Assembly (NCBI RefSeq): GCF_021432385.1 | Contig: NZ_JAEACT010000002.1 | Location: forward strand, 502,016 to 566,015 | Length of the DNA stretch: 64,000 bases | Origin: Clostridium hydrogenum | Lineage (GTDB): Bacteria > Bacillota > Clostridia > Clostridiales > Clostridiaceae | Direction: 5' to 3' | Shown here: in pieces, positions 7,761-49,374 of the stretch | Position numbering within the stretch: the stretch's first letter is position 1 | Layout: the number at the start of each line of letters is the position of its first letter | Program-made: the position numbers and the translations under genes | Notes under the pieces: generated by a model | The model's input: only the letters and a program-made list of their open reading frames with translations | Database searches by the model: none | What the model was told of the DNA's origin: nothing

Positions 7761-7798
7761 AATACAACCCCCACTTTTTCCCTTAATTATAACATAGG

Positions 7799-8557: not shown

Positions 8558-8569
8558 TCAAAATTCCTC

Positions 8570-23191: not shown

Positions 23192-23224
23192 TTAATCATC
23201 CTTTTTAAAACATATTAAACCCAC

Positions 23225-33117: not shown

Positions 33118-33151
33118 AACCTTTATTCAGAGTACTCTGAATAAAGGTTTG
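33118..33151. terminator. bidirectional stem-loop between convergent genes
   Basis: Perfect 15-bp stem AACCTTTATTCAGAG/CTCTGAATAAAGGTT with the 4-nt loop TACT, flanked by T-rich sequence. It overlaps the last codons of the minus-strand ORF. Confidence 0.55.
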
Positions 33152-33569
33152 CAACAATTTCATTATTCTTAATCACCGTTCTTTGTTTAGGTAATGTTAT
33201 TTTATATTCATTATTTCCCAAAACATGTAGTACCACAAAATCATACGCAGTATTGCTGTCTTTATTCATACTTGTATCGTAAATTCGTATTCCGCCACCA
33301 ACTGCAAAGGTATATGTAGGGAATCCTTTTGCATTAAATAAAATTTCAATTTCATCATTCTTTTCACTTACCGAATTAATAGTAATTTTTTTATTATCAC
33401 CTACTGAGACATCAATCGGCAACTTGGAGTTTAATGGTAAATACTTTGGGTTTTTTACCTTAAAATCATTAGAAAAAACACTATCACCTTTTGGTTTAAG
33501 TATCATAATCCTAGAAAGCTTGCTACCTTCAATTTGCTTGTAAAATAAGTATTCTAAGTTCATAATCAA
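33123..33569 (-). CDS. hypothetical protein (beta-rich, could be a sigma-factor partner)
   Basis: 148 aa. Overlaps the 3' end of the sigma-factor gene by 41 nt in another frame. The track start is TTG; an ATG lies 2 codons downstream (33563). Confidence 0.4.
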   Translation of the reverse strand: MIMNLEYLFYKQIEGSKLSRIMILKPKGDSVFSNDFKVKNPKYLPLNSKLPIDVSVGDNKKITINSVSEKNDEIEILFNAKGFPTYTFAVGGGIRIYDTSMNKDSNTAYDFVVLHVLGNNEYKITLPKQRTVIKNNEIVANLYSEYSE

Positions 33570-33927
33570 TTTTATCTACCGTGCTTCTTATGTCTATTTT
33601 TCTAAAACCATTTTCTTCAAATGTACCTTCAACGTAATTTTCATAAGAAACAATTTTTCTTTTCTTATTAATAATTGCATTACAACTATTGATAAGAATT
33701 TTTATAAGCCATGTTTTAAAATACTCAGGCTTTTTCAACTTTCTTATACCTTCAAAAGCTTTAAGTATAGAATCTTGTATAGCATCTAAAGCATCGTCAT
33801 CATTTTTAAGCATTGCAATAGCTATTCTATATAAATCTTTTTCGTAAAGTTTTATAATTTGCGTAAATGCTTCTTTATTTCCTTTCCTAGCCACTTCTAC
33901 TAACCTTATCGAGTCCAAATTTCCCAT
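33529..33927 (-). CDS. sigma-70 family (ECF-like) RNA polymerase sigma factor, short or truncated
   Basis: Region 2-like segment (KEAFTQIIKLYEKDLYRIAIAMLKNDDDALDAIQDSILKAFEGIRKLKKPEYFKTWLIKILIN). GGAGGA RBS 6 nt before the internal ATG (M15, 33927). The ORF ends where region 4 would begin (VDKIDYELRILILQAN*). Confidence 0.5.
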   Translation of the reverse strand: MGNLDSIRLVEVARKGNKEAFTQIIKLYEKDLYRIAIAMLKNDDDALDAIQDSILKAFEGIRKLKKPEYFKTWLIKILINSCNAIINKKRKIVSYENYVEGTFEENGFRKIDIRSTVDKIDYELRILILQAN

Positions 33928-34343
33928 ATTATCCTCCAAAGCTAAAATATGATTACATTTTATATTCACATATTAGATAAGTTAAAACTACTTTTGGTTC
34001 TAACAAATTTTTCAATAGTAGTATGTTTTTTATCAATTTCTCTTTATATAAATCTACATAAAAATATTACATTTTATACAAATACTATTTAAAATTGTTA
34101 TGTGTTAGCTTAAAATAATAAAATTATAAACTTTATTGTCAATATGCATTTGTAAATTTTCACTATTACATTGTATTATTTACCAAATATATAATTGTAT
34201 GTAATTATATATTGTTTTATAGCATTCATTAGGTGTATACTTTTACATTTGATATGTAATCTAATTACAGAAATTGAAAAGAAAGTTTCGCAATGCTATA
34301 ACTTTACTCGTGATCACAAATATATATCACAGGAGGCAATAAT

Positions 34344-35102: not shown

Positions 35103-35201
35103 ATTATAAATTATAAAGAGTTACCATGATAAAACTAAAGTTATACATGTTACAAAATAATAGTCATAAAACTCATTATTTAAAACATGTATAACTTAAA
35201 T

Positions 35202-35615
35202 TTAAGATTGGTAACTTTCAATTTTAAATATAACTTGACCATATTGGACCATATCTTTATCTTTAACTAATATTTCTAATATAGTTCCATTAACTGGAGA
35301 AAGTATTTCAATAGTAACCTTTAAAAAATTAATTGTGCATAGTAATTGCTTTATCTTAACCCTTTCACCACGTTTTACATATAAATTGTTAATTTCATGA
35401 TTAAAAATATTTACTATGCCAACATATTGCGACTTAACTTCTATAATCTCACTTCTATTGTGAGTAGTGCAACAGATTTCATTTCTAGCGGTATTGAAAA
35501 CTTCTTGTGTCGCCTTTATATATAAATTATTTGTTTTTATTTCAACATATGTCATATTGGAATTTATTATTTGTTGAATTAGGTTAACAAGTTGAGATTC
35601 CTCCATATTCTTCAC
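35202..35615 (-). CDS. hypothetical protein, last gene of the RiPP/ABC operon
   Basis: 137 aa. C-terminal region (VSPVNGTILEILVKDKDMVQYGQVIFKIE) weakly resembles a biotin/lipoyl-like hybrid barrel. Confidence 0.4.
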   Translation of the reverse strand: MKNMEESQLVNLIQQIINSNMTYVEIKTNNLYIKATQEVFNTARNEICCTTHNRSEIIEVKSQYVGIVNIFNHEINNLYVKRGERVKIKQLLCTINFLKVTIEILSPVNGTILEILVKDKDMVQYGQVIFKIESYQS

Positions 35616-35659
35616 CTAGCTTACGAGTTTTTATAAGTACCTCAAATTTAATAGCTTAT

Positions 35660-36331
35660 TTACTTACTACTGCATATCCTACCATCTTTTATTTTAATAA
35701 CATCATCACATATTGAAGTAGATTCTAAGTTATGTGTAACCATTAATATAGTGGTCTTAAAATCATCACAAAGTTTTCTTAATAATTTTAAAATCATATC
35801 AGCATTTTGGGAATCTAAATTACCCGTTGGTTCATCGGCAAAAACAATCTTAGGGTTATTAACTAATGACCTTGCTATTGACACACGCTGTTGTTCTCCT
35901 CCTGATAAATATCCTGCTTTTTTATTTCTCTTATCATACAATCCTACATCTTTCATTAATTTATCAATAATATCTTTCTTTTTACCAAGTTCCCTATTCG
36001 CTATTATTATTGGTAATCTAATATTCTCTTCAATAGTCATCGTAGGTATAATATTATAAGATTGAAATACAAAACCTATATTATTACATCTAAACTCTGA
36101 CATTTTACTATCATTTAATTTCATTATATCAGTATTATCGATATATACTTCTCCTTTATCAGCAGTTAATAGCCCACTCAATGTATACAAAAGAGTACTT
36201 TTACCAGATCCCGAATTTCCTGTTATTGCAACAAATTTGCCATTTTCAACATTAAGTGATATATCCTGTAATACTGGTACATTTGTATTATTATTATCGT
36301 ACGACTTACAAACATTTACTGCTCTAATCAT
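35660..36331 (-). CDS. ABC transporter ATP-binding protein (MacB/FtsE-like)
   Basis: Walker A GNSGSGKST, signature LSGGEQQRV, Walker B VFADEPT, H-loop THN. 223 aa. Confidence 0.85.
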   Translation of the reverse strand: MIRAVNVCKSYDNNNTNVPVLQDISLNVENGKFVAITGNSGSGKSTLLYTLSGLLTADKGEVYIDNTDIMKLNDSKMSEFRCNNIGFVFQSYNIIPTMTIEENIRLPIIIANRELGKKKDIIDKLMKDVGLYDKRNKKAGYLSGGEQQRVSIARSLVNNPKIVFADEPTGNLDSQNADMILKLLRKLCDDFKTTILMVTHNLESTSICDDVIKIKDGRICSSK

Positions 36332-36341
36332 TTACAATCCC

Positions 36342-38858
36342 CTATTCATCCTTTATATTTTTAACAACATCGCATTTAACTGATTTTCTAACGGAAAAAA
36401 ACATGAACGTCAGTGATACACTAAGAACTAATATACCAATTATACAAGACTGTACTACTGAAAAACTACTTGGCACATTTACGCCACCTCCATTAGATGC
36501 TTTATTAAAAATCCCCACCAAATATTCAGTTGATATACTACTTCCACAAATGCCAACTACAATCACCACAAGAAATAATAACGCTATCTCTAAAAACGCT
36601 ATTCTAGTAGTGCTAATCTTGCTTAGACCAATAGACATTAGTAACGCTAATTGCTTTTTATTTTCACTTATTGTCATTACACATGTATTTACCAATAATG
36701 TCATTAAAGCAAGTTCTATGGTAAAGAAAAGAACTTCAATTGGTAGCATTCCTTCCATCACATTTTCCTGCCACATATATTTCATACCATTACGGTCATT
36801 ATAATCTACTTCCTTGCTTTTTTGCTTTCTTTCTTCTTTAATCTCTTCTTTGCTTTTTTGTGTAGTATCACCAAACAACGCTTGATCAATTTTATCTTCT
36901 GTGTCAAATCCATTTTTCTCATTTATATATTTAATTGGTATTCTACATGTTTCAGGCTTAAATTGATCCTTATCGCCAAAAGAAAATACAACCCTTCCTG
37001 AATAATCCATAGTATTAATTATATCAGCAATCCTAACATTTTTCTTTTTTTCTCCTACAATTACTTCCAACTCAGAATTTATTTTCTTGTGTAAATTATC
37101 AGCTAATTCCTGTGAAATTACAACATCGTTATTGTTATCTTTAATATACTGTAATCCATTTTCAAATAAATTTTGATTATACATTTCCTTTATGACCGAT
37201 TCACTAGTTACACAATAGTTAAATTGGTCTCCTAAATTACTTTTTGCTTGTCCTTCATATATGCTACCAATTGGTTCTATATTTCCAATCTTTTTAATGA
37301 TCTTTTGCACTTTACTTTCTTCGGAATCTGTATATTTATAATTAATCTCAATATCATACCTTAATTGTTTATCAACTTGATCCCTTGCCCAATTGTGGTA
37401 TGACTTAATTGTATTTGATAAGGAAAGCTGTATAAGAATTATTAATAAAAAAGAACATGCCAGCCCCTTGTTTTTACTAAAATTATTACTCATATTATGA
37501 GATACAAGAAGTGTAGTTCTATTTACCTTTAATTTCACTAATTTTCCGATGATCACTACTATATACGGAACCAAGCTAATAATTCCAACAATAAATAGTG
37601 CAAATAAAATTCCACATGATAACAATGTTAAGTTATTACTATTACAAACTAAATGGATAGTAATTGGGATAGCTATAGCTATGATACCCAGAGTAATTTT
37701 GATAGGATTATTTTTACTGCTATCTATTACTTCATCTTTAGCTTTAATAAGCTCATATGGGGTTTTCTTATTAAACCTTGTTGTTACAACTAAAACTGAT
37801 ACTATTGGCAGTACACCACCAACAACAATAGATATTAAAATGAATTCAAAACTCGGCACAAAACTCAAAATTGGTGTAGCTGTTAGAGTACAAACTCCAC
37901 ACCCTAATGCTATTCCTAAAGTAATTCCAAGAACTATACCAATACATGAATAAAACAAATTCTCAAGCACTATACAATATACCATCTCTCTATACTTAAG
38001 TCCTATAGTTCTTAAAACTGCCCAAAACTTAATACGTTCATTAATTATAACCGTATACGTATTTATAATTAAACTACACCCTAGAAATACAATAATAGCA
38101 ACTAAAAAAAGTAAACTATTTTGTAAAAATCCCATATCTTTTTCAACTTTAACATACTTTTGATAATCGTCAAAAACCTTTACCTCATCTCCATAGCTAT
38201 TATTTATCTTTTGTATTAACAATTTTGCATTGTTTGTATTGTGATTTAGATCTAGAAATATTCCACTTAAAGTATTACTACCATTTAAAATACCACTAGA
38301 AATAAATATTGTATCATTATCAGAGGTACTTGCATAATTTTCAGTTACTGCAGCAATCCTACATTCAGTTTTAATCCCATCAACCTCAACCTCTACATAA
38401 TCATTTAATTTAGCCCCCAGTTTTTTCATTAACTGCTTATTAACCACAATATCATTAGGTAATTTACTTATACTTCCTTGTACTATATTCATTTTTTCCA
38501 TGTAATTATAATCATTAAATTCTGTTTCATAAATATCTATACTTACTGGATTATCATTAAATGTTATATTACCTCCTTGTATAATATTAAAATTGACTTT
38601 CTTCTTTACATCACTATTGCTTATAATATTATCAATTTTTTTTCTATTAACCTCAGAATTAAATATCAGCCTTACATCTGAACTTCCACTTTTATTGACT
38701 TCTCTTATCTTCAGTCCGTTCATATTATTTGAGAACAATATTTCAGACATAATTATTATTGCCACTATTAGCATTACAGCAAAGGAAATAGGTATATTCC
38801 TCCTACGCTCTTTTGAATTGCTCACCCTATCTTTTATTAATATAATTTCTTTTTCCAT
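36342..38858 (-). CDS. ABC transporter permease, FtsX family (two FtsX modules)
   Basis: 838 aa, N-terminal TM, large extracytoplasmic domains, two 4-TM FtsX-like bundles. Adjacent to the ATPase. Confidence 0.75.
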   Translation of the reverse strand: MEKEIILIKDRVSNSKERRRNIPISFAVMLIVAIIIMSEILFSNNMNGLKIREVNKSGSSDVRLIFNSEVNRKKIDNIISNSDVKKKVNFNIIQGGNITFNDNPVSIDIYETEFNDYNYMEKMNIVQGSISKLPNDIVVNKQLMKKLGAKLNDYVEVEVDGIKTECRIAAVTENYASTSDNDTIFISSGILNGSNTLSGIFLDLNHNTNNAKLLIQKINNSYGDEVKVFDDYQKYVKVEKDMGFLQNSLLFLVAIIVFLGCSLIINTYTVIINERIKFWAVLRTIGLKYREMVYCIVLENLFYSCIGIVLGITLGIALGCGVCTLTATPILSFVPSFEFILISIVVGGVLPIVSVLVVTTRFNKKTPYELIKAKDEVIDSSKNNPIKITLGIIAIAIPITIHLVCNSNNLTLLSCGILFALFIVGIISLVPYIVVIIGKLVKLKVNRTTLLVSHNMSNNFSKNKGLACSFLLIILIQLSLSNTIKSYHNWARDQVDKQLRYDIEINYKYTDSEESKVQKIIKKIGNIEPIGSIYEGQAKSNLGDQFNYCVTSESVIKEMYNQNLFENGLQYIKDNNNDVVISQELADNLHKKINSELEVIVGEKKKNVRIADIINTMDYSGRVVFSFGDKDQFKPETCRIPIKYINEKNGFDTEDKIDQALFGDTTQKSKEEIKEERKQKSKEVDYNDRNGMKYMWQENVMEGMLPIEVLFFTIELALMTLLVNTCVMTISENKKQLALLMSIGLSKISTTRIAFLEIALLFLVVIVVGICGSSISTEYLVGIFNKASNGGGVNVPSSFSVVQSCIIGILVLSVSLTFMFFSVRKSVKCDVVKNIKDE

Positions 38859-38869
38859 ATATTCTCCTT

Positions 38870-40066
38870 TTATGCTTGTTGTTTATTTTTAACACCCTTT
38901 AATTTCTTAAGTATATCTACTATGCCTATACAAGGCAGCACAGTTACTATTGCAACAAAAATTTTTGTAAAAATTGAGTGTGCATCATACCAAGCTAAAA
39001 ATATCCATCTAGCCATAAATAAAAACATATAAGCTATAGCTATTAAACTAGCTATAAAATATATAAAATATACTCTTCTCTCCTTTTTGCTTATCTTATA
39101 AGCTTTATTCTTAAAGAACATATATTTAATTATATATGTTCTTACGTTGAATTTATTTAAAAGAATGGAAAATAAAAAATACCCATCAGTTAATGAAAAT
39201 GGACTTAAATTAGTTACAATAGCAATAAAATTACTTATAGCTACTATCTTACACATATCTCTAAAATTAGAGTCAATCCCTCCAAGCGATGCAATCCCTA
39301 AACTTACAAATGCAATAGCTAAATTTGTAACTAAACCAGCCATAACTATCTGTATTTTCTCAACATTTTTAAGTGTATTAATTCCCTTTACTTTAATATA
39401 AACAATAGGCATACATCCACTATATAAATTAAATGAAACTTTGTAAACGTCCTTTCCTAATGACAATGCAACAATAATATGTGATAATTCATGGGCTATT
39501 AATGAAAATCCTGACATAATTGTTAGATAAATAAATCCAGCTGAAGCAGAATTATTATACTTATACAATTGTTTTGTATTTCCCAAATCTAAAACATTGA
39601 AATTATTTATAGCAACTATAATACTAAAAAAAATCAATATACTATATAAAGCTATAAATAATTTCTTTATAGCTTTAGCTATTTCCTTTATTTTTTTGCT
39701 TTGAGGTTTCAGTATAACTTTAACTATCTCCTTTGACATAATATCAATTTCATTACTTATAATTCCACGCTGTTCATTTTCAATAAACCCATTATTCACT
39801 AATATCTTATAAAAGGCGCCAATATCTACTTTGCATTTTAATTCATCTTCAACTTTTGATTGCACATTGCTTAATGTACTACTTCCATCAAATAACTTTA
39901 TTATTCTTTGTACATATTTCAATTTATTTTTTGGTATCTTTATATATTTCTCCTTGTCCTCGCAAGCTAATACATAATACTCTTGTTTTCCAAATATGGA
40001 CTTATCCTCGATTATCTTATAGTCACTTACAAATTTAGGTTTAGCCTCTAAACTACTAGCCTCCAT
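38870..40066 (-). CDS. M50-family (site-2-protease-like) membrane zinc metalloprotease with N-terminal cytoplasmic domain
   Basis: HExxH within a TM helix (LIAHELSHIIVAL) and a downstream LDG-type motif (NLSPFSLTDGYFLF). Multiple TM helices. Its ATG overlaps the stop of the upstream rSAM gene (TAATG). Confidence 0.7.
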   Translation of the reverse strand: MEASSLEAKPKFVSDYKIIEDKSIFGKQEYYVLACEDKEKYIKIPKNKLKYVQRIIKLFDGSSTLSNVQSKVEDELKCKVDIGAFYKILVNNGFIENEQRGIISNEIDIMSKEIVKVILKPQSKKIKEIAKAIKKLFIALYSILIFFSIIVAINNFNVLDLGNTKQLYKYNNSASAGFIYLTIMSGFSLIAHELSHIIVALSLGKDVYKVSFNLYSGCMPIVYIKVKGINTLKNVEKIQIVMAGLVTNLAIAFVSLGIASLGGIDSNFRDMCKIVAISNFIAIVTNLSPFSLTDGYFLFSILLNKFNVRTYIIKYMFFKNKAYKISKKERRVYFIYFIASLIAIAYMFLFMARWIFLAWYDAHSIFTKIFVAIVTVLPCIGIVDILKKLKGVKNKQQA

Positions 40067-41472
40067 TAATTATCAACTCTCTCTAAACTTTTTTTATAAT
40101 ACTCGTAACTATTGAAATTTGCCTCTGAAAAATTAATTGATAACTTTTTTACATTCTTACTAAAGTTTTTATACTCCTCTTTATTTGTAACAAGTTTAAC
40201 AAGGTTTAATATTACCCTTTCAGTTATAACCCTTTGAACAGCACATCTTGATTCTATTACACTTTTTTTATTTCCATTAAACAAAAGTGAACTTCCTTCA
40301 CACCATAATGTACATACTCTATTGCAGAAACATTTTTTACATTTTTCTATCTCCGAACGATCTACCTTTTTAAATTCGTTCATTTTATCTTTTATATTTG
40401 ATTCATTATCAAAAATTGATGATATTTTGTCTTTTTTAGCTTCATAATACATTTGGCATGGATAAAACACTCCATCTATAGTATAAAATAATGACTCCTT
40501 ACCTGCTGTACAGTATTTAGCTTTTCTTTTTGTTACTATATTTATAATTATATTCAAAATTGTAATCGGAACTGTCATACATTTTTCTTCATCCTGTAAC
40601 ATTTCAAAACAATAATCAACCATATCATAATAAAATGTTCTTATATTTCTTTCAAATTCTGTAGGTAACTCATTCACATTATTGTAATCAGCTATATATG
40701 TAGATACATTCTGAGCCCCTAGTTCATAAAAATTATTAAAATATTCATTTATACTTCCGGCATTATATGTTCTTAAAAATGCCTCTCCCACCGTAGACTC
40801 TACCTCAAAAGTATATCCTCTATCTCTTAGCAATTTTAAGTTATTTAAAACTGTATCATAAGATCCTCTACCATCCTTAAATACTCTCATAGAATCATGA
40901 CATTCCTTATTTGCATCCATGCTAATAGTCACAAGAACACTATGTTCAATTATAAACTCAACAATTTCATTTGTAAGTAATGTACCATTTGTAATTACAC
41001 TAAATAGTGGCTGAGTAATGTTCTTTTGTCTACAAACATCTTCTGCATAACATATAAATTTTTCTATCTCACTAAATCCAATTAATGGTTCTCCGCCAAA
41101 AAAATTAATTACCTTTACACCATCAGGATAATTATTTAGAATAAATTCAAAAATCTTCTTATAATCATCAAATACCATTACTTTGTTGCCTTTTCTATCA
41201 TAAGTACCAGCATTTGCAAAACAGTACTTACAAGCCAAATTACAAGTTTCTGATGAACATATTATAAGATGTTTTAACCAAGTTCTATCAATAACATTAT
41301 TGGGAGTAACCATATCTTTTATTTTATCATTCTTAAAAACTTCTTTAATTTTTAAATTTATTTCATCTGGTTTACTACTATATAAAGCGATACTTGACGT
41401 TTCTGCATTATATAATATTTTTGTATTTTCATCCCTATCAATTACGTATACATTATCATACATCTTGTTCAT
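40066..41472 (-). CDS. radical SAM / SPASM-domain peptide-modifying enzyme
   Basis: CxxxCxxC (ETCNLACKYCFANAG), a GGEP motif (FFGGEPLIG), and a C-terminal Cys-rich SPASM-like region (KYCTAGKESLFYTIDGVFYPCQ...CKKCFCNRVCTLWCEGSS...RCAV). About 70 aa of N-terminal extension precede the rSAM core. Confidence 0.85.
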   Translation of the reverse strand: MNKMYDNVYVIDRDENTKILYNAETSSIALYSSKPDEINLKIKEVFKNDKIKDMVTPNNVIDRTWLKHLIICSSETCNLACKYCFANAGTYDRKGNKVMVFDDYKKIFEFILNNYPDGVKVINFFGGEPLIGFSEIEKFICYAEDVCRQKNITQPLFSVITNGTLLTNEIVEFIIEHSVLVTISMDANKECHDSMRVFKDGRGSYDTVLNNLKLLRDRGYTFEVESTVGEAFLRTYNAGSINEYFNNFYELGAQNVSTYIADYNNVNELPTEFERNIRTFYYDMVDYCFEMLQDEEKCMTVPITILNIIINIVTKRKAKYCTAGKESLFYTIDGVFYPCQMYYEAKKDKISSIFDNESNIKDKMNEFKKVDRSEIEKCKKCFCNRVCTLWCEGSSLLFNGNKKSVIESRCAVQRVITERVILNLVKLVTNKEEYKNFSKNVKKLSINFSEANFNSYEYYKKSLERVDN

Positions 41473-41574
41473 TAACTTTTCCCCCTATGATATTTATTTT
41501 TTATATCCTTTTTAATATCGAGAAGCACTGCCAACAAAATTAATTGCTAGCAAGTGCTAAAGGTTATATATTAA

Positions 41575-41709
41575 CTAGCAGCAGTGATAGCCACCAAAAG
41601 AAAATCCACTTACAACTTCTTCAATCTCACTAAGATCATCAAATGAGACCATTTCTAAATTTTCTTCATCTAATATTTTGTTTTCATTTTCTCTTTCATT
41701 CTTTATCAT
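41575..41709 (-). CDS. RiPP precursor peptide paralog 1 (44 aa)
   Basis: GGAGGG RBS. Translation: MIKNERENENKILDEENLEMVSFDDLSEIEEVVSGFSFGGYHCC*. Not in the ORF track. Confidence 0.7.
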   Translation of the reverse strand: MIKNERENENKILDEENLEMVSFDDLSEIEEVVSGFSFGGYHCC

Positions 41710-41849
41710 AATAAACCCTCCCCTCTTATCTGATTATTTGTTTATAATCTTATTACCTTGTAAAGAACCATATGTTTATTTATTCATATTATTCAAATAT
41801 ATGTCATACAAGGTTAAAATTTTTTTATTATTTTCCTAACTAATCTTAA

Positions 41850-41984
41850 TTAGCAACAGTGATAGCCACCAAAAGAAAATCCACTTACAACCTCTTCAAT
41901 CTCACTAAGATCATCAAATGTAACCATTTCTAAATTTTCTTCATTTAATATTTTGTTTTCATTTTTCTCTTCATTTTTTGTCAT
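41850..41984 (-). CDS. RiPP precursor peptide paralog 2 (44 aa)
   Basis: RBS GGAGCG. Translation: MTKNEEKNENKILNEENLEMVTFDDLSEIEEVVSGFSFGGYHCC*. Confidence 0.7.
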   Translation of the reverse strand: MTKNEEKNENKILNEENLEMVTFDDLSEIEEVVSGFSFGGYHCC

Positions 41985-42033
41985 AATAAAACGCTCCTTT
42001 AATCTTTTAATTTACCATATTAACTATTCTAAA

Positions 42034-42168
42034 TTAGCAACAATATTGAGTTCCTGCAGAAAATCCACTTACAACCTCTTCCATTTCACTGAGATCATCA
42101 AATGTAACCATTTCTAAATTTTCTTCACTTAATACCTTGTTTTCATTTTCTTTTTCATTTTTCATCAT
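42034..42168 (-). CDS. RiPP precursor peptide paralog 3 (44 aa)
   Basis: RBS GGGGTG. Translation: MMKNEKENENKVLSEENLEMVTFDDLSEMEEVVSGFSAGTQYCC*. Confidence 0.7.
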   Translation of the reverse strand: MMKNEKENENKVLSEENLEMVTFDDLSEMEEVVSGFSAGTQYCC

Positions 42169-42252
42169 AATAAAACACCCCTTTTAATTTTTTTAATATA
42201 TAATAAACTCAATCAAAAATTATTAAAACTTTGTTATATTATCTATTGTTAA

Positions 42253-42387
42253 CTAACAACAATATTGACTTCCTGCAGAAAATCCGCTTACAACTTCTTC
42301 CATTTCGCTAAGATCATCAAATGTAACCATTTCTAAATTTTCTTCACTTAATACCTTGTTTTCATTTTCTTCATTATTCATCATCAT
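42253..42387 (-). CDS. RiPP precursor peptide paralog 4 (44 aa)
   Basis: RBS GGGGGGG. Translation: MMMNNEENENKVLSEENLEMVTFDDLSEMEEVVSGFSAGSQYCC*. Confidence 0.7.
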   Translation of the reverse strand: MMMNNEENENKVLSEENLEMVTFDDLSEMEEVVSGFSAGSQYCC

Positions 42388-42466
42388 TGCAAATCCCCCC
42401 CCTTCAAATTTTATAATTTCAATTAACTATTTAGTTTTACATTTATTTATTGATTGAATTTATATC

Positions 42467-43579
42467 TTAATTTGTGACTATGGAATTAACTTTTTTCATA
42501 ATTTCAGCCTCTATTTTGGAAACTTCCTCTAGTCTAATAATCAAATCTTTTAGAAATGAAATTTTGCATCCAATGTAATTTTTATTATTATATAGTTTTC
42601 TAATTATATATCTCCATTTGATACTTAAATCCATCATTTTTTGTGCTTCAATAACTAACTCATCACTTTTAATATCCTTTCCAAACATTATTAATGCCTT
42701 TGCTATCTCTTCTCTTTCAAAAGTGCTTGTCCCTATTATTAATCCTTTTCTAAGGATTTTTGATTGTAATGTAAAAATTTTACTTGTTATATCCTCCTTA
42801 TTGGTATATCTTTTAATCATATCTATAAATTCATTAAGATATTCTATTATATACTTATATGCATTTTTACCACTTGTGAAATAAACATTATCACAATATT
42901 GTGTTAACTTGCTTTCCTTTGAATAGTTATCAGAAAATATAGCTATTTGCCTTAATATCAGTGTTCTTAATTTATCCTTATCCAATGACATTTTACTGTT
43001 TTTTTCAATTATAAATGCTCGTCCACTTGGCGACATTGGATATATTTTACTTTGCCTACTTCTTTTAAAATCCTCATAATCTACACTTATATATTCCTCA
43101 GTACTTGCAAGTGAACTCAATATTAGCTTTTCTTCTAAAACCCCTATTACTATTCCAGAAGATATATTGCTAATTCTTGCACTATTTTTTTTATATCTAT
43201 CTAACATCTCACTAGTATCGAAATAATAAACTACAGTTTGTTTATTAGAAACATATTCTTTAATTTTCTCAAGTGAATCTGTATTTTCCTTATCTAATTC
43301 AAAAACATTAAAACCTAATGATTTCAAAACATATATTTCAACCTCCTCATCACCAGGAAATATCTGGCACAAGTTTAGTTTGTTATAATTCTTTATTAAA
43401 AAGAAATTTATAATATTATTTAGACTTAATAACAATATATATTCAAAGCTTACTTCTTCATTTTTTAACCTTAGTAAATCGTAGATACATTTAATTCTAC
43501 AATGCCTATTTCTTTCATGTATGCCTTTATACTTATAAAGTAATGAATCTTCCACTATACTCCCTCCAATTTTTTGCAC
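42467..43579 (-). CDS. hypothetical protein (370 aa) between the KS/ACP genes and the precursor array, candidate transferase
   Basis: Intact ORF with RBS. No motif I can assign with confidence. Its position suggests a role linking the ACP-bound product and the peptide. Confidence 0.5.
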   Translation of the reverse strand: MQKIGGSIVEDSLLYKYKGIHERNRHCRIKCIYDLLRLKNEEVSFEYILLLSLNNIINFFLIKNYNKLNLCQIFPGDEEVEIYVLKSLGFNVFELDKENTDSLEKIKEYVSNKQTVVYYFDTSEMLDRYKKNSARISNISSGIVIGVLEEKLILSSLASTEEYISVDYEDFKRSRQSKIYPMSPSGRAFIIEKNSKMSLDKDKLRTLILRQIAIFSDNYSKESKLTQYCDNVYFTSGKNAYKYIIEYLNEFIDMIKRYTNKEDITSKIFTLQSKILRKGLIIGTSTFEREEIAKALIMFGKDIKSDELVIEAQKMMDLSIKWRYIIRKLYNNKNYIGCKISFLKDLIIRLEEVSKIEAEIMKKVNSIVTN

Positions 43580-43602
43580 GAAAGTATTTTTTTATTAAAA
43601 AT

Positions 43603-45954
43603 CTATAATTTGCATTTTTTTAATATAACCGCACTATATGAGTGAGGATATGAGTAACTAGTAATCAAAATATTATTTATATCTGTTTTTAAACCTCTAC
43701 AATAGTAAATACTATTTTCATACAACTTATTTTCCCCACGCAATACCAATGCAGCATGTGCTATTTGCATTGAACTTGTTGCCGCTCGTCCTTCTCCTAA
43801 AATATCCTTAATTGAAATGATAGAAATATCGTTAAAAATATTCTTATAAATTTTTAGCTCCATCTCATCTATATTCTTATGCCCATTTGCAAGCCCCACA
43901 ATAGCCCCTATATCACAAGGATTTAATTTACACCGTTGTAATGCCATACTTATTGCGTACTTTAATCCTTCGCCATCATAATTAATTTTTGAAGAATCAT
44001 TATACATGCCATATCCCAAAACTTCAGCGTACTTCCTTCCATTTCTCTTATTGACGCTTTCTTCTGATTCTAAAACTATACTCCCAGCACCTTCAGTGAT
44101 TTCAAAACCATTATTTCTAAAGCTATCTGTTACTGAATTTTTATCATAGTTTGCCATATCATATGCTTTTTTTATGGTATCATTTATTTCATCTACCCCA
44201 GAAGCTATTATGCATTGGCTTCTATTTAGCTTTATTAAGTCATAGGAATAACAGAAACTATGAATTCCACTTTCTATACCATTTACTAATGTCGCTGTAT
44301 ATCCTTTTGCTTTTGTTATCATTGATAAATACCCTGCTGCGGTATTATATGATATACTTGGAAATAAAATTGCACTTGTGCCTTTAGTTCCCTTTTGTAT
44401 AATTTGCTTTATATAACTTTCAATTGTATTTATGGGTCCATCGCTTGTACCGACTATTATACCTACATCTTCTAATTGATTAAAATCAATTTTCGCATCA
44501 CTTATTGCATTTATCCCTGAAACAGTTAACATCTTTGAAAATCTATCCATTCTTCTTAAATACTTACTCTTAATACAATCAAATTTTTTTAAATTCTGCT
44601 CAAAATTTTCCATTTCATTTATATGCTTATCACCGTTTCTTTTTGTAAAAAAATCTATGTAGCTATCCTTACCTATTCCAAGGCAATTTACCATACCAAT
44701 TCCAGTTATAAATACTCTCGGTTGATTTAATTCCTCCGCTTTATATGAATTTACTTTCCTAGAAAATATAACAGACGAATTAACTCCACCAAAAGCTAAC
44801 GAATTAGACATTATATTATTTGTATTATACTTAATAAACTTATTAGGAATAAAATCCATATTATAATTTTGATTATTTTTATCAAAATTCATAGTTGGCG
44901 GTAATACATTATTCTCCATAGATTTTATTGATATTATCGCTTCTAATATGCCTGCTGCACCAAGGCAATGCCCTATCATCGATTTAGTTGAGCTTATCTT
45001 TATGGAATTTAATTTTTTTGCAAACAGTTTTTCATAACATCTTTTTTCAGTTGTGTCATTTAAATACGTTCCAGTTCCATGTGCATTTACATAATCTATA
45101 TCACTAGCATTTAATTTTGACATGTTTAAAGCAGACTCCATTGCTTTTAATTGAGTTTCTCCTGATGGTTCAGGTGATGTTACATGATATGCATCGCTTG
45201 TAGTTCCATATCCTAATACTTCACAATACATCTTTGCATTTCTTTTATTTGCATGCTCCAAAGATTCTACTATAATTATTCCTGCCCCTTCTCCTAATGT
45301 TAACCCATCACTTTTTGAAAATGGTGAACATTCATTACTAGATAATGCTTTTAAAGCATGGAATCCTGAAAACTGAGTATTACTAAGTGCATCAGCTCCA
45401 CCTACAATCATTACATCGACATTTCCTCTTTTAATCAAATCACATCCATATGCAATACTTATATTGGAAGATGCACACGCATCTGCAATACTTTCTACAG
45501 GACCACATATTTCAAAATATTCCGATATTTTTTCAGCAATATTTCTTATGCTGATTTTATCAATATCACTTTTAAAAATTTCCTTGCCCTTATCAATTTT
45601 TCTTAGGACGGTTTCACGTGAGTTCATTCCGCCCATGCAACTTCCTATAGCTATTCCTATTCTGCTTTTATCCAATTCACATATGTTTAACTGTGAATCC
45701 TCAATTGCCTCTATACATGCTTTTAAGGCCATCATTGTTGTATTATTTAATTCTTCTCTGATTTTAGAATGAAATTCGAAATTATCAATTTCAGCTCCTA
45801 CCATTGTATAACATCCATCAGTATTAACCTTGCTTAATTTTTTAAAACCAACTTTTCCATTTACTGTATTTAAAAAAGTATCATTTACATTTTCTCCATT
45901 ACAGCATGTACACCCCATACCAGTTACAACACATCTAATCATTTCCATCACCAC
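43603..45954 (-). CDS. tandem beta-ketoacyl synthase protein (KS + chain-length-factor-like second KS domain)
   Basis: Domain 1 carries the KS triad: active-site Cys in IADACASSNISIAYG, and His in VNAHGTGTYLND and SMIGHCLGAAG. Domain 2 (from about aa 410) is KS-like but lacks the active-site Cys (TSDGPINT), as in CLF/KS-beta. Confidence 0.8.
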   Translation of the reverse strand: MVMEMIRCVVTGMGCTCCNGENVNDTFLNTVNGKVGFKKLSKVNTDGCYTMVGAEIDNFEFHSKIREELNNTTMMALKACIEAIEDSQLNICELDKSRIGIAIGSCMGGMNSRETVLRKIDKGKEIFKSDIDKISIRNIAEKISEYFEICGPVESIADACASSNISIAYGCDLIKRGNVDVMIVGGADALSNTQFSGFHALKALSSNECSPFSKSDGLTLGEGAGIIIVESLEHANKRNAKMYCEVLGYGTTSDAYHVTSPEPSGETQLKAMESALNMSKLNASDIDYVNAHGTGTYLNDTTEKRCYEKLFAKKLNSIKISSTKSMIGHCLGAAGILEAIISIKSMENNVLPPTMNFDKNNQNYNMDFIPNKFIKYNTNNIMSNSLAFGGVNSSVIFSRKVNSYKAEELNQPRVFITGIGMVNCLGIGKDSYIDFFTKRNGDKHINEMENFEQNLKKFDCIKSKYLRRMDRFSKMLTVSGINAISDAKIDFNQLEDVGIIVGTSDGPINTIESYIKQIIQKGTKGTSAILFPSISYNTAAGYLSMITKAKGYTATLVNGIESGIHSFCYSYDLIKLNRSQCIIASGVDEINDTIKKAYDMANYDKNSVTDSFRNNGFEITEGAGSIVLESEESVNKRNGRKYAEVLGYGMYNDSSKINYDGEGLKYAISMALQRCKLNPCDIGAIVGLANGHKNIDEMELKIYKNIFNDISIISIKDILGEGRAATSSMQIAHAALVLRGENKLYENSIYYCRGLKTDINNILITSYSYPHSYSAVILKKCKL

Positions 45955-45959
45955 TCAGC

Positions 45960-46220
45960 TTAATTGATTTTAGTAATAATTAAATTAGCCAAGTCTCGTA
46001 TACATTTAATAGATTTCTCATCATCACTTGTAATTGTAATTCCAAACATATCTTCAGCAGTTGATGTTATTTCAATTATGTCTAGCGAATCTAATTCTAA
46101 TCCTCCATCAAAAAATTCTTGATCATATGTTAATCTTTCGGCATCAATATCTAGTTTTAACTTTTCAATTATTTCTTTCTTTAGCTTTGCACAAATATCC
46201 TCTTGACTATATTTCATCAT
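45960..46220 (-). CDS. acyl carrier protein
   Basis: 86 aa, acidic. Phosphopantetheine attachment motif GGLELDSLDIIEI, where the Ser of DSL is the attachment site. Confidence 0.75.
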   Translation of the reverse strand: MMKYSQEDICAKLKKEIIEKLKLDIDAERLTYDQEFFDGGLELDSLDIIEITSTAEDMFGITITSDDEKSIKCIRDLANLIITKIN

Positions 46221-46594
46221 TTATCCCCACTTTCATTTTTATTATATTCCCACAATAATATTTAACTTTTGTTAAAATACTAATTTACGTTTAGAATCGT
46301 ACAATTAGCATATTTTTTGATTTTAACAACCAATATGTAATATATTAAAATTATTATTTTACAATTCCTTATTTGTATTATACTTCCAATTAACTTTATA
46401 TTCAATACTTTTTTGTATTATTTTGCCAAATATATTTTTCTAACTATCAAGTTTCTGTAAATATAAAGCAAAAACACCTTAATTCATACTTTTTAAGTAT
46501 AAATTAAGGTGTTTTTATTAAATTTAGGTATAACACAAAAAGTGTAAATACATTTTTAATTATATATTTTAAATTATTTGCTACAAATGTTGAG

Positions 46595-47203
46595 TTACCT
46601 AAAAAGTTTTTCCCCAATCTCTACAAAGGCTTGGAACATTATAAACGCCCTCATATCCATTTTCACATCTTCTTTTAATAACTTTTTAACTTCATCTTGC
46701 GAAAGTAGCATTACTTCAATGTCCTCATCTTCCTCAAGAAACTCATTAGATACAGTTCCCTTGCAAGTGCAGAAAACTATTGCTGCTGATTCATCTGTCA
46801 TACCTGCTGAGGCATAAACCTTCTTTTTAGTTTTTTCATGATTTATTTCAATAAGTTCAAGTCCTGTTTCTTCTTTCAATTCTCTTGCAGCTGCAACATC
46901 AAAACTCTCATTTCCATCAACAAGTCCTGCTGGAAGCTCATATACATAATCATTTAAAGGAACCCTAAATTGTCTTACACATACTATTTTTTTACTTTCA
47001 ACATGAAGTGCAGCAATTATTGCAGCATCGACTCTCTCCTCTGCCCCTTCAAAATATTGTTTTTTAAGTGTTTCATAATCTTTTCTTGAAGCAATTGTCC
47101 AATGCTTTAAACTTCCCATTTTATTTTCATATTCTGCATCATAAAGACTCAAAAATTTTGATCCTGCCATGGTTGTTAACTTCTTTATTTTATTTTCTTT
47201 CAT
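46595..47203 (-). CDS. NUDIX hydrolase (ADP-ribose pyrophosphatase-like)
   Basis: NUDIX box PAGLVDGNESFDVAAARELKEETGL. The start is set at the ATG with RBS GAGGGTGA (MKENKIKK), not the upstream track ATG at 47239. Confidence 0.75.
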   Translation of the reverse strand: MKENKIKKLTTMAGSKFLSLYDAEYENKMGSLKHWTIASRKDYETLKKQYFEGAEERVDAAIIAALHVESKKIVCVRQFRVPLNDYVYELPAGLVDGNESFDVAAARELKEETGLELIEINHEKTKKKVYASAGMTDESAAIVFCTCKGTVSNEFLEEDEDIEVMLLSQDEVKKLLKEDVKMDMRAFIMFQAFVEIGEKLFR

Positions 47204-47231
47204 ATGTATCACCCTCATTTTCAAAAAAATC

Positions 47232-47270
47232 ATCCACATTCATACTATATATTTTAGCATAAATGTGGAT
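47232..47270. promoter_or_regulatory. conserved stem-loop motif, copy 1 (ATCCACATT-N21-AATGTGGAT)
   Basis: 9-bp perfect stem with the 21-nt loop CATACTATATATTTTAGCATA. A near-identical stem and loop recur at 50317..50355. Sits between an HK stop and the NUDIX start. Confidence 0.5.
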
Positions 47271-47286
47271 AAGTATGCTTTTATAT

Positions 47287-48717
47287 TTAATTTTCGTTTA
47301 AGAATCTTATAGCAATCCTTGTCCCTTTATTAACTTCACTTTCAACTTCAAGTTTAGCATTGTGAATCTTAGAAATTTGTGCACATATTGAAAGTCCAAG
47401 TCCTGAGCCATTATTACTTCTATCTCTTGATTTATCAACCATATAAAAGGGCTCAAAAATCTTATTTATATCTTCCTTTGGAATTCCAATTCCGTTATCT
47501 GCTATTTCAATAACAGGAGATTCCTTAACATATGCTCTTATATATATTTCACCATCATCTTGAGACGCCTTTATTGCATTATCCACAAGATTTGTTATTA
47601 AAATTATTATAAGCTCCCTATCCATGTTTATACATAAATCTTGTGCCTTAATTATTAGCTTAATATTTTTACTTTTTAATTTAGGTGTAATTAAAGCCTG
47701 TACCTCTCGAAGAAGCTCTTGTACTCTTTCCATTTTCATTATAGGCTTTTCTTCTCTTAATACAATCAAATCTCTAAGCTTTAAAGAAAGTTTTTGTAAC
47801 CTTTTTCCTTCTTTATATATGTACGTTAAACATTTTATATGTGTTTCTTCATCATATTTATCAGTTGTTCTTAAAAAATCAGCATATCCAATTATTGAAG
47901 TAAGCGGTGTTTTAAGCTCATGTGATAAATCATCTATAAATCTTTGCTTATCCTCTGAAATTCTCTCAAGCTCATTTATCTTATCTTCTATTACCTGTGC
48001 CATACAATTAAAATTTATTGATAAATTACTAATTTCATCATGTGATTTAATTTTGACCCTTTCAGAAAAATCCCCACTGGATATTTTTTTTGTAGATTTA
48101 ACAAGCTCATCTATAGGCCTAATTATAATTTTACTAAGCAATATCATAACTACAGCTAAAATCAAACATATTGCTATATTGGCCTTTATTAAAACATTAT
48201 ATAAGTACTTTCCATCTTCATATGCTTGCGAAATTTCCTTTACATATGTAATTTTATAAATATTTTTATTTAAATTAATTTTTTTATTTACAAACAAATA
48301 TGTATGTTTATTTATATCATGTATAAAGTAACTATAACTATTAAATGAAATATTCCATATACTTTTATTACTTATAATTTTCTCTTTAAAATTGGTGAAT
48401 ATAGTTTTGTTATTTTTATCACTTATGTACAAATATACATTTCTATCATTAAAGTAACTTGCATAAGCACATACCATAGAATCTATACTTTTCTTATCCA
48501 CCTTCAAATCATCACTAGGTGGATTTTTTTTATCTTCAAAAAACTTAATTGAAAGTTTTATAGAATCACAAAATTTATTTTCTTCAATCATACCTATATT
48601 TATTTCGTTTTGTAAATTACGTTCAAAGCTTCTATGTATTAAATACATGCTTGATGATACAAAAAATACTTCAAAAACTATTAAAGTACATAAAAATATC
48701 TTCTCCCAAAGTTTCAT
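47287..48717 (-). CDS. sensor histidine kinase
   Basis: Two TM segments and an extracytoplasmic domain. H-box LSHELKTPLTSI. HATPase_c N and G boxes (NLVDNAIKAS, DNGIGI, GSGLGLSI). Confidence 0.85.
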   Translation of the reverse strand: MKLWEKIFLCTLIVFEVFFVSSSMYLIHRSFERNLQNEINIGMIEENKFCDSIKLSIKFFEDKKNPPSDDLKVDKKSIDSMVCAYASYFNDRNVYLYISDKNNKTIFTNFKEKIISNKSIWNISFNSYSYFIHDINKHTYLFVNKKINLNKNIYKITYVKEISQAYEDGKYLYNVLIKANIAICLILAVVMILLSKIIIRPIDELVKSTKKISSGDFSERVKIKSHDEISNLSINFNCMAQVIEDKINELERISEDKQRFIDDLSHELKTPLTSIIGYADFLRTTDKYDEETHIKCLTYIYKEGKRLQKLSLKLRDLIVLREEKPIMKMERVQELLREVQALITPKLKSKNIKLIIKAQDLCINMDRELIIILITNLVDNAIKASQDDGEIYIRAYVKESPVIEIADNGIGIPKEDINKIFEPFYMVDKSRDRSNNGSGLGLSICAQISKIHNAKLEVESEVNKGTRIAIRFLNEN

Positions 48718-49374
48718 TTATTCCTCCAGCTTATATCCTAATCCAAACACTGTTTTTATATCATCCTTTAAATTCAATTTTTTTCTAATACGTTGGATAT
48801 GGCTATCTATGGTTCTTGTTTCACCTATATAGTCATACCCCCATATCTTTTCTAGCAATCTTTCTCTTGTAAGTACAATATTCTTATTTTGCACTAAAAT
48901 TAAAATAAGCTCAAACTCCTTAAGTGTAAGTTTTACAAAGTCTCCATTTTGTTTCACAGTTCTTTCTTGCAAATTAATTTCTATATACTTATACCTAAGT
49001 ATATTTTCCACTTTATTATAATGCCTAAGTACATTTTCAATTCTTGCAAGCAGTTCAACACCTTCAAAAGGCTTTGTCATGTAATCATCGGCACCCATTT
49101 TTAACCCATATACCTTATCTGCGATTGAATCCTTTGCTGTTAAAAAAATACTAGGAATGTTATACCCCTTAATTTTTTTAAACAAAGTAAATCCATCTAC
49201 CTTTGGCAGCATTACATCTATAATCGCCAAATCAAAGGTTTCTTCTTCGATCATATCCAAAGCCTCTTTGCCATTATATGCTTGTCTACTATCATAGTTT
49301 GACATACTTAAATTTAGCTTTATTAAATCAGAAATTGGGACATCATCTTCAACTATTAATATTTTCATTATCAA
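48718..49374 (-). CDS. OmpR/PhoB-family response regulator
   Basis: Receiver domain (KILIVEDD, LAIIDVMLP, LTAKD) plus a winged-helix domain (LTLKEFELILIL, GLGYKLEE). Confidence 0.9.
   Translation of the reverse strand: MIMKILIVEDDVPISDLIKLNLSMSNYDSRQAYNGKEALDMIEEETFDLAIIDVMLPKVDGFTLFKKIKGYNIPSIFLTAKDSIADKVYGLKMGADDYMTKPFEGVELLARIENVLRHYNKVENILRYKYIEINLQERTVKQNGDFVKLTLKEFELILILVQNKNIVLTRERLLEKIWGYDYIGETRTIDSHIQRIRKKLNLKDDIKTVFGLGYKLEE

Follow-up and report, generated by a model that had tools for sequence, protein, structure and literature searches.

Gene content of the cluster

The stretch of DNA analysed here (the window) comprises 64,000 nt of Clostridium hydrogenum, contig NZ_JAEACT010000002.1. 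A cluster of twelve open reading frames (ORFs) lies at window positions 35202-46220 (~11 kb). The ORFs follow each other head to tail, all on the minus strand (Table 1). They encode an acyl carrier protein (ACP), a ketosynthase (KS) fused to a chain length factor (CLF), a 370-aa protein, four precursors of a peptide that is made by the ribosome and modified after translation (RiPP), a radical S-adenosylmethionine (rSAM)/SPASM maturase, a membrane protease, the permease and ATPase of an ATP-binding cassette (ABC) exporter, and a 137-aa protein. An earlier note on this DNA had listed these genes and proposed that the KS and ACP are functionally joined to a multi-precursor rSAM RiPP system and that the peptide receives an acyl group. 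Every ORF in that list was found at its coordinates on the minus strand. The protease start overlaps the rSAM stop as claimed, with one base common to both, and the four 44-aa precursors were confirmed as paralogues. On balance, the genes are favoured to form one operon for a hybrid natural product, part acyl chain (fatty acid or polyketide) and part ribosomal peptide.

Table 1. Features of the cluster and its borders, listed in the direction of transcription.
Feature	Position in the window	Strand	Properties
Promoter-like site TTGAAT-17-TATAAT	46377..46405	-	agrees with the consensus at 10/12 positions, a consensus match only; located upstream of the ACP gene
ACP, 86 aa	45960..46220	-	PF00550, 38.9 bits; LDSLD phosphopantetheine-attachment serine
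Fused KS/CLF-like protein, 783 aa, single chain	43603..45954	-	TIGR03150 FabF, 496 bits for the N-terminal half
BtrH/CtaG/CcbD-fold protein, 370 aa (NCBI call, 362 aa)	42467..43579	-	papain-like N-terminal domain and helical DUF4872-like domain
Precursor 1, 44 aa	42253..42387	-	MMMNNEENENKVLSEENLEMVTFDDLSEMEEVVSG followed by core FSAGSQYCC
Precursor 2, 44 aa	42034..42168	-	core FSAGTQYCC
Precursor 3, 44 aa	41850..41984	-	core FSFGGYHCC
Precursor 4, 44 aa	41575..41709	-	core FSFGGYHCC
Stem-loop without U-tract	41524..41558	-	centroid -18.6 kcal/mol, z = -2.2; directly after the fourth precursor, before the rSAM gene
rSAM/SPASM peptide maturase, 468 aa	40066..41472	-	PF04055, 59.6 bits
Site-2-protease-type (M50-like) intramembrane zinc protease, 398 aa	38870..40066	-	HELSH and N..P..LTDG motifs
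MacB/FtsX-type ABC permease, 838 aa, two FtsX modules	36342..38858	-	PF02687, PF12704; weak LolCE similarity
ABC ATPase, LolD/MacB/bacteriocin-export type, 223 aa	35660..36331	-	PF00005, 127 bits
Degenerate protein of the biotin carboxyl carrier type (probable), 134-137 aa	35202..35615	-	PF00364, 50.4 bits (above cut-off)
Long AT-rich hairpin, then U-rich stretch	35132..35203	-	-23.8 kcal/mol, z = -4.1

The intergenic gaps in gene order are 5, 23, 79, 84, 49, 140, 102, -1, 11, 10 and ~44-53 nt. The ACP gene is separated from the KS-CLF gene by 5 nt, the KS-CLF gene from that of the 370-aa protein by 23 nt, the protease gene from the permease gene by 11 nt and the permease gene from the ATPase gene by 10 nt. 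The longer spacers (49-140 nt) are confined to the four precursor genes. A strong 20-bp terminator (46516-46470) closes the upstream NUDIX gene, and the promoter-like site before the ACP gene comes after it. The sigma-70 promoter scan was uninformative, with 86 sites observed against 90 expected. The terminator scan gave no terminator ahead of the precursors. At the other end, the AT-rich hairpin, which the GC-biased terminator scan missed, is probably the end of the operon. The stem-loop after the fourth precursor possibly stabilises the precursor mRNA or attenuates read-through, setting the precursor:enzyme ratio. The flanking genes are unrelated to the cluster. Downstream, on the opposite strand, there is a CBM21/53 (starch-binding-module) protein. 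Directly upstream, beyond the strong terminator, the NUDIX hydrolase gene and a two-component pair of histidine kinase and OmpR-type regulator occupy 46595-49374 on the minus strand. A plasmid megablast gave no match for the cluster and its GC content is even. Therefore, nothing points to a mobile element.

The ACP scores 36-45 bits on the NCBIfam ACP models, all under cut-off, and is 32% identical to the ACP of a Clostridium fungisolvens locus (L025, described below). A residue-level alignment to B. subtilis FabF (4ls5) showed that the N-terminal KS keeps an intact Cys-His-His set in the motifs DACASS, NAHGTGT and GHCLGAAG. In the alignment of the two halves, the C-terminal CLF half has Ile at the Cys position and both His are absent; it is predicted to be catalytically dead. 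The Gln of the CLF for malonyl-decarboxylation priming of the aromatic polyketide synthase (PKS) type is not present, Ile being found in the window and Val in L025. The cluster has the features of a type II KS-CLF system: Cys-His-His in the KS, no Cys in its partner, and an ACP of its own that carries the DSL serine. Relatives of the KS-CLF at 37-48% identity are widespread in Firmicutes.

Each precursor gene has its own G-rich ribosome-binding site. The leader common to the four window precursors reads ...E-N-L-E-M-V-T/S-F-D-D-L-S-E-M/I-E-E-V-V-S-G, and none of them matches an NCBIfam or Pfam precursor model. In the precursor alignment, peptides from eight other loci align to the window cores gap-free. 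The leader motif of the family reads F-(D/E/N)-(D/E)-L-x-E-(M/L/I)-E-(E/D)-V-V-x-G and the family core is x-[S/T]-x-G-x3-C-C with fixed spacing, in which Gly39, Cys43 and Cys44 are almost invariant. The window precursors end at Cys-Cys, whereas 2-14 more residues follow in L001/2, L004, L005, L006, L012, L028, L029 and L030.

The rSAM enzyme carries the motif CNLACKYC (CX3CX2C) and the full SPASM Cys pattern CX12GX4C ... CX2CX5CX3C ... C, although its score on the SPASM model PF13186 (18.2 bits) is below the cut-off of 21.5. None of the NCBIfam equivalog cut-offs was reached (PapB, 162 bits against 340; ScfB, 152 against 425; CcpM, 142 against 500). Among solved structures, that of CteB, a SCIFF maturase that forms thioethers, is the closest (5wgg, E 3e-28). 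Relatives of the enzyme are rare, the best being 39% identical, and one homologue (P0007) in a metagenome-assembled genome (MAG) of Lutisporaceae stands in an unrelated context. By analogy with CteB, the rSAM together with the invariant Cys-Cys pair would suggest a Cys-to-carbon thioether in the product.

The protease consists of a cytoplasmic N-terminal domain of ~110 aa and a membrane part with the HExxH and NxxPxxxLDG ligand motifs of M50/site-2 proteases (S2P). The residues H192, E193, H196, N286, P289, D294 and G295 are invariant in its alignment. Its profile matches the S2P structure MJ0392 (E 0.0018) and SpoIVFB; the Pfam M50 match is weak in its relatives. The scores on daptide_HExxH (53.7 bits, cut-off 300) and YydH/LiaK (37.6 bits, cut-off 225) are low. 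The protease is proposed to be the leader peptidase. A leader-binding domain of the RiPP recognition element/PqqD-like kind was suspected at the N-termini of the protease and the rSAM enzyme, and no significant Pfam match was found there. The ABC ATPase scores 233 bits on LolD and 199 bits on DarD, both under cut-off.

The 370-aa protein had been called unknown in the earlier note. It has indeed no Pfam or NCBIfam match of its own, and a word-indexed homology search returned the protein itself alone, yet it can now be placed in the BtrH/CtaG/CcbD fold. An exhaustive HMMER search of 1.84 billion representatives gave 50 relatives, each of 340-390 aa. Forty-three of them were scanned singly, and matches appeared to BtrH_N (28 of 43), DUF4872 (21 of 43) and Peptidase_C39_2 (8 of 43). 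The family profile gave a marginal C39-like match only against the PDB sequences. Therefore, a fold comparison was needed. The single-sequence AlphaFold model (predicted local distance difference test, pLDDT, 39) was discarded, and the alignment-based model was confident (pLDDT 94.4, predicted template modelling score 0.92). It has the two-domain build of the BtrH/CtaG/CcbD ligases, papain-like at the N-terminus and helical at the C-terminus. Of the 43 relatives, 39 have Cys27. This residue stands where the first helix (27-38) begins, which is the position of the catalytic Cys in these ligases. CtaG and CcbD are papain-like ligases with a Cys-His-Asp/Glu triad, in which the carrier-protein-bound acyl group is taken onto the N-terminal Cys and then passed to an amine in a ping-pong manner, and BtrH and AsbE have been reported as enzymes of this kind (PMC12865890, PMC12945683).

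The 137-aa protein was left undefined previously. Its ORF is present, and it is now named as a biotin carboxyl carrier protein (BCCP)-like protein by PF00364. The likelier start is the ATG at 35606, behind AGGTGA. Its score on the BCCP model TIGR00531 is 37.6 bits against a cut-off of 115. In comparison with the canonical L025 BCCP and with E. coli AccB, a Lys (Lys96, counted from the ATG at 35606) lines up with the biotinyl-Lys, within N-F-L-K-V in place of the E-A-M-K-M motif. The window cluster has no biotin carboxylase or carboxyltransferase gene, unlike L025, which encodes a BCCP together with both and so explains the presence of the BCCP-like gene. By analogy, the gene is taken as a remnant or accessory of a cluster-encoded acetyl-CoA carboxylase that is complete in L025. 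An HlyD-type exporter adaptor was also considered for this protein and rejected, on the grounds that it has no transmembrane segment, that its N-terminal region is AccB-like and that the L025 BCCP stands beside the biotin carboxylase and carboxyltransferase genes.

Recurrence of the gene combination in related loci

The neighbourhoods of the rSAM, BtrH-like (370-aa) and KS-CLF homologues were inspected, species genomes and metagenomes were scanned with the protease profile, and the loci obtained (L numbers) were annotated by BLAST and hidden Markov model (HMM) searches. The protease profile also drew in more distant systems, and the species representatives returned did not include the genome from which the window comes. 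Genes for a precursor, a BtrH-like protein, an rSAM enzyme, an M50 protease, a KS and a carrier protein appeared together in five other diverged loci of anaerobes (L001/2, L004, L006, L025 and L030). The protein identities to the window are 23-48%, the gene orders are shuffled and the KS lineages are different. L030 (GCA_030154545.1) has genes for the BtrH-like protein, two precursors, rSAM, M50, FtsX, ABC, a metallo-beta-lactamase-fold protein (MBL), ACP and a fused KS-CLF. L025 of C. fungisolvens (GCA_014193895.1) has the BCCP, biotin carboxylase, carboxyltransferase, rSAM, four multi-Cys precursors, an M50-like protease, the BtrH-like protein, MBL, ACP, fused KS-CLF, ketoreductase (KR), dehydratase (DH), FtsX and ABC. 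L004 contains ABC, a nitroreductase, the BtrH-like protein, three precursors, rSAM, M50, FtsX, ACP, KS, DH, CLF, KR, a phosphopantetheinyl transferase (PPTase) and a thioesterase. L001/2 and L006 share CLF, KR, DH, KS, a flavoprotein and an adenylation-thiolation-condensation (A-T-C) protein, similar to a non-ribosomal peptide synthetase (NRPS), directly before the BtrH-like protein and a precursor; rSAM and M50 follow in L001/2, and the contig edge follows in L006. In four further loci (L005, L012, L028 and L029) the peptide module is present but cut by contig ends, so that they are uninformative on the KS link.

The affinities of the two halves of the cluster are different. The rSAM enzyme and the BtrH-like protein of the window are nearest to those of L001/L006 (39% and 36%). 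For the window KS, the nearest sequences are the KS-CLF fusions of L030, L025 and L026 (46-48%), and the KS of L001, L004 and L006 shares only 33% identity with it. Therefore, different chain-building modules have repeatedly been joined to the same peptide module, which argues for a functional link rather than an inherited neutral adjacency. Judged from these comparisons, the link between KS/ACP and peptide looks functional. The carrier protein is also found near the BtrH-like gene, as the ACP two genes upstream in the window and as an ACP or an A-T-C protein in the relatives, with the exception of L007/8. The recurrence in five diverged loci thus supports the functional joining proposed in the earlier note. 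Refutation was to come from unrelated phylogenetic distributions of the two parts, and the conserved co-occurrence is the opposite of that.

Other features of these loci were observed. A second, divergent BtrH-like paralogue is located inside the KS/KR/DH part at L001:2033-3127 and L006:29-1105 (66 and 47 bits on the family HMM), and thus L001 and L006 each encode two papain-like ligase-fold proteins. A second precursor type with multi-Cys cores such as ...FEDLTERVEFGPCAANFSPCGANGCIGAC occurs at L001:12600-15506 and L025:3727-7753, with its own rSAM and its own M50-like protease subfamily. In L001 this set comes directly after the CC-type set. In L025 it is the sole peptide type, yet the BtrH-like/ACP/KS-CLF machinery is the same. 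Among the metagenome contigs, L013, L015, L018, L019, L021 and L024 have an M50-like protease beside an AMP-binding/Condensation (NRPS-like) protein. In addition, L015 and L018 encode two rSAM enzymes, a 4HBT thioesterase, an ABC ATPase and a BtrH-like protein that is distantly related, to which L018 adds a PPTase. L018 and L019 are human-gut contigs. These distant loci may represent a wider family of peptide/carrier-protein hybrid clusters.

Proposed pathway and alternative explanations

The product is most likely, by prediction, a short peptide that has thioether crosslinks and carries an acyl chain built on the ACP. In the proposed pathway, the KS-CLF, a heterodimer in one chain, would extend the acyl chain on the dedicated ACP, using malonyl units that housekeeping FabD and acetyl-CoA carboxylase provide in trans. 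The four precursors would be bound via the conserved leader stretch F-D-D-L-S-E-M/I-E-E-V-V-S-G. The CteB-like rSAM/SPASM enzyme would then form the thioether crosslink or crosslinks from Cys-Cys, probably to two likewise conserved positions four to seven residues upstream, the Ser/Thr and the Gly. In core numbering, Cys8/Cys9 are predicted to be joined to Gly4 and Ser2. The site-2-type membrane protease would cut the leader off after Gly. The BtrH-like protein, proposed as an acyl-ACP:peptide transacylase, would load the acyl chain from the ACP onto Cys27 and hand it to the peptide. The freed N-terminal amine would be the likeliest acceptor because the core has no conserved Lys. Finally, the MacB-type ABC exporter would expel a small lipopeptide with a 9-residue core. 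We tentatively propose, with a confidence somewhat short of even, a new RiPP class of anaerobic Firmicutes, in which x-[S/T]-x-G-x3-C-C peptides are crosslinked by an rSAM/SPASM enzyme and joined to a polyketide or fatty-acyl unit (an NRPS-derived unit in relatives) by a His-less Cys/Ser variant of the papain-like carrier-protein ligase fold.

Several observations weigh against the proposed hybrid pathway. The first concerns the active site of the coupling candidate. In the column of the catalytic His, which precedes the G-Y-D motif by six residues, 34 of the 43 relatives have Ser, 6 have Thr and only 2 have His. The window protein has Ser140 at the canonical His position (H128 in CtaG and H131 in CcbD, at the start of the central beta-strand). 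In the alignment, the C39-like peptidase 3erv has its His in this column, the mapping being made from sequence and topology and not from structural superposition. The third triad residue is Asn in close relatives (I-L-N-S), Asp in distant ones (L-D-L) and Ser in the window (L-I-L-S-S). With Ser/Thr in place of the canonical His in 40 of the 43 relatives and Ser at the third position in the window, the chemistry may differ from that of the amide-forming relatives. By its alignment, the clade is best described as a Cys/Ser variant of the BtrH/CtaG/CcbD fold. Second, the cluster has no acyltransferase (AT), KR, DH or enoylreductase gene, as the earlier note had said. The KR, DH, MBL, PPTase and AT genes seen beside the KS in relatives are missing, and therefore the chain built here is undefined. 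Third, the AMKM motif is gone from the BCCP-like protein, and most of the related loci encode no counterpart of it. Fourth, the two modules also occur apart. L007/8, a Clostridium MAG locus with full flanks, contains a BtrH-like protein, an M50 protease and a single-Cys precursor, with no rSAM or KS within 10 kb, and KS-CLF/ACP/KR/DH cassettes are found in non-RiPP clusters (L026 and L027).

The leading alternative, which is unlikely, is that the BtrH-like protein acts on the peptide and not as an acyl-ACP transferase. It would serve in leader binding or processing or in a new Cys-Cys chemistry, and the KS-CLF/ACP would make a separate co-regulated lipid or polyketide, perhaps co-exported as a synergistic partner or a membrane-anchoring component. 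The clade-wide absence of the canonical His fits this explanation; however, a protease needs the His too, and its loss is an argument of at least equal strength against proteolysis. For the N-terminal domain, the structural matches next in rank are C39-type peptidase domains, but a dedicated S2P-type protease is already in every locus and the near-invariant Cys27 argues for covalent catalysis. The trio of BtrH-like protein, M50 protease and precursor in L007/8, with no carrier protein or KS nearby, is in its favour, although the donor there could be a housekeeping acyl-ACP. AziU3, which has the same fold and is not known as an acyltransferase, also counts against a transacylase. On the other hand, unrelated carrier-protein systems (KS/ACP or A-T-C) have repeatedly been recruited beside the BtrH-like gene, and this is hard to explain without a carrier-protein-dependent step.

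It is quite improbable that the peptide is a disposable scaffold of the pearlin/3-thiaglutamate type, on whose Cys-Cys end a small thio-polyketide is built, for example by KS extension onto a Cys-derived unit, and then cleaved off. The cores are very short, and those of the window end exactly at Cys-Cys; however, 2-14 more residues follow the pair in the related loci. The four near-identical precursor copies and the two protease-fold proteins in the cluster would suit a scaffold. No peptide-aminoacyl-tRNA ligase or similar scaffold-loading enzyme was found in the cluster with Pfam and NCBIfam, and the S/T and G at fixed spacing, with a CteB-like crosslinker as the rSAM enzyme, point to intramolecular crosslinks. 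Least probable, at a very small chance, is that a fatty-acid/polyketide operon happens to stand, or is merely co-regulated, upstream of a chemically unconnected ordinary ranthipeptide/SCIFF-like bacteriocin operon: KS-CLF/ACP cassettes are common in Firmicutes and also occur in non-RiPP contexts, and a promoter-like site is found upstream of the first precursor, within the 3'-terminal part of the BtrH-like gene, though such matches occur at chance rate, but the co-occurrence in five further loci of 23-48% identity with differing gene orders and KS lineages, the 5- and 23-nt gaps that tie the ACP, KS-CLF and BtrH-like genes with no terminator before the precursors, and the carrier-protein transacylase fold of the linking gene all argue against it.

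Other modules are located elsewhere in the window. A second MacB/FtsX-type permease (784 aa) is encoded at 5687-10924 (minus strand) together with a histidine kinase and an OmpR-type response regulator, an arrangement that resembles a Bce-type peptide-antibiotic sensing/detoxification module. Two tandem regulators of ~860 aa with a C-terminal LuxR/GerE domain are found at 20597-25810 (minus strand), the second of which (23225-25810) also gives MalT-like TPR and AAA-type matches. A BAAT/acyl-CoA-thioesterase-like gene at 19283-20587 (plus strand) is beside them. At 33123-33969 (minus strand), a 146-aa ORF with sigma-70 region 2 only overlaps by 41 nt with a 148-aa ORF lacking a family match; the two ORFs may be parts of a split gene or may encode a short sigma/anti-sigma pair.

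Comparison with known systems and significance

As the earlier note had held, the architecture fits no characterised class, and no NCBIfam equivalog cut-off was reached for the rSAM enzyme, the protease or the precursors. Its single parts are comparable to known systems. The SCIFF, ranthipeptide and sactipeptide maturases likewise have a CX3CX2C rSAM with full SPASM and act on short Cys-bearing cores behind an acidic leader. In contrast, the window rSAM is far under all family cut-offs, its precursors have no model match, and the Cys pair is adjacent and C-terminal to the conserved S/T and G. An Asp/Glu acceptor of the PapB type is absent from the window core. The HExxH proteases of daptides and epipeptides (MpaP-type; YydH/LiaK) are also polytopic metalloproteases encoded directly after the RiPP maturase, but the window protease has the S2P NxxPxxLxDG motif and a distinct cytoplasmic N-terminal domain of ~110 aa. 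The aryl-polyene-like and type II PKS KS-CLF cassettes share the active KS, the Cys-less partner and the dedicated ACP, and the relatives of the window type add KR and ApeI/FabA-like DH as these cassettes do. However, KS and CLF are fused in the window, the CLF has neither the Cys nor the Gln of aromatic PKSs, and KR and DH have been lost from the cluster or were never present.

CtaG (closthioamide), CcbD/LmbD (lincosamides), BtrH (butirosin) and AsbE (petrobactin) have the fold in common with the 370-aa protein but not the full triad, and the sequence identity to ligases of this type is only 10-14%. These ligases serve ribosome-independent pathways, on small-molecule amines or amines bound to a peptidyl carrier protein. 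In the accessible literature (subscription-only work could be missed), no CtaG/BtrH-fold ligase was reported to act on a ribosomal peptide, and neither BtrH-fold enzymes in RiPP clusters nor rSAM-RiPP/KS-CLF hybrids were described.

The search for lipidated ribosomal peptides aims at genetically encodable substitutes for the NRPS lipopeptide antibiotics. The lipidated RiPP classes in an October 2026 review all use acyltransferases from the GNAT (Gcn5-related N-acetyltransferase) family, and the hybrids with fatty acid synthase (FAS) or PKS genes come from actinomycetes (PMC13647313). For goadvionin, the acyl donor must be ACP-bound (preprint 10.1101/2023.10.25.564083). If the proposal is true, the cluster would provide the first non-GNAT route to lipidated ribosomal peptides and the first CtaG/BtrH fold acting on a ribosomal peptide. 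It would thus add a second, unrelated coupling enzyme for carrier-protein-bound donors, and the use of KS/ACP or A-T-C depending on the locus suggests that the donor side is plug-and-play. Ribosomal pathways, and not only non-ribosomal ones, would then have a place for papain-like thiotemplated ligases. The linkage chemistry would possibly be one that has not been seen before, such as S-, O- or C-acylation at the conserved Ser/Cys. The small, clearly delimited 11-kb cluster with its 9-residue core would be amenable to direct heterologous expression, and the human-gut loci L018 and L019 suggest that the family may be relevant to microbiome chemistry.

The nearest comparison is with the goadvionins, lipolanthines and lipoavitides of actinomycetes, which also combine a ribosomal precursor and FAS/PKS-type genes (KS, ACP) in one cluster. 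In these, the acyl chain is built apart and joined to the peptide N-terminus after leader removal (PMC13647313, 10.1101/2023.10.25.564083). They employ a GNAT together with lanthipeptide-type enzymes making avionin or AviMeCys rings. Among the ten cluster proteins, neither an acetyltransferase of the GNAT kind nor a LanKC/LanM/LanD-like protein was matched with Pfam and NCBIfam. The window has instead a papain-like coupling candidate of the BtrH/CtaG fold, an rSAM/SPASM maturase and an intramembrane S2P-type protease, and its hosts are strictly anaerobic Clostridia. The cluster matches no described lipidated-RiPP family and is assigned to the RiPP/fatty-acid-polyketide hybrid kind, with a different maturase, coupling enzyme, protease and phylum.

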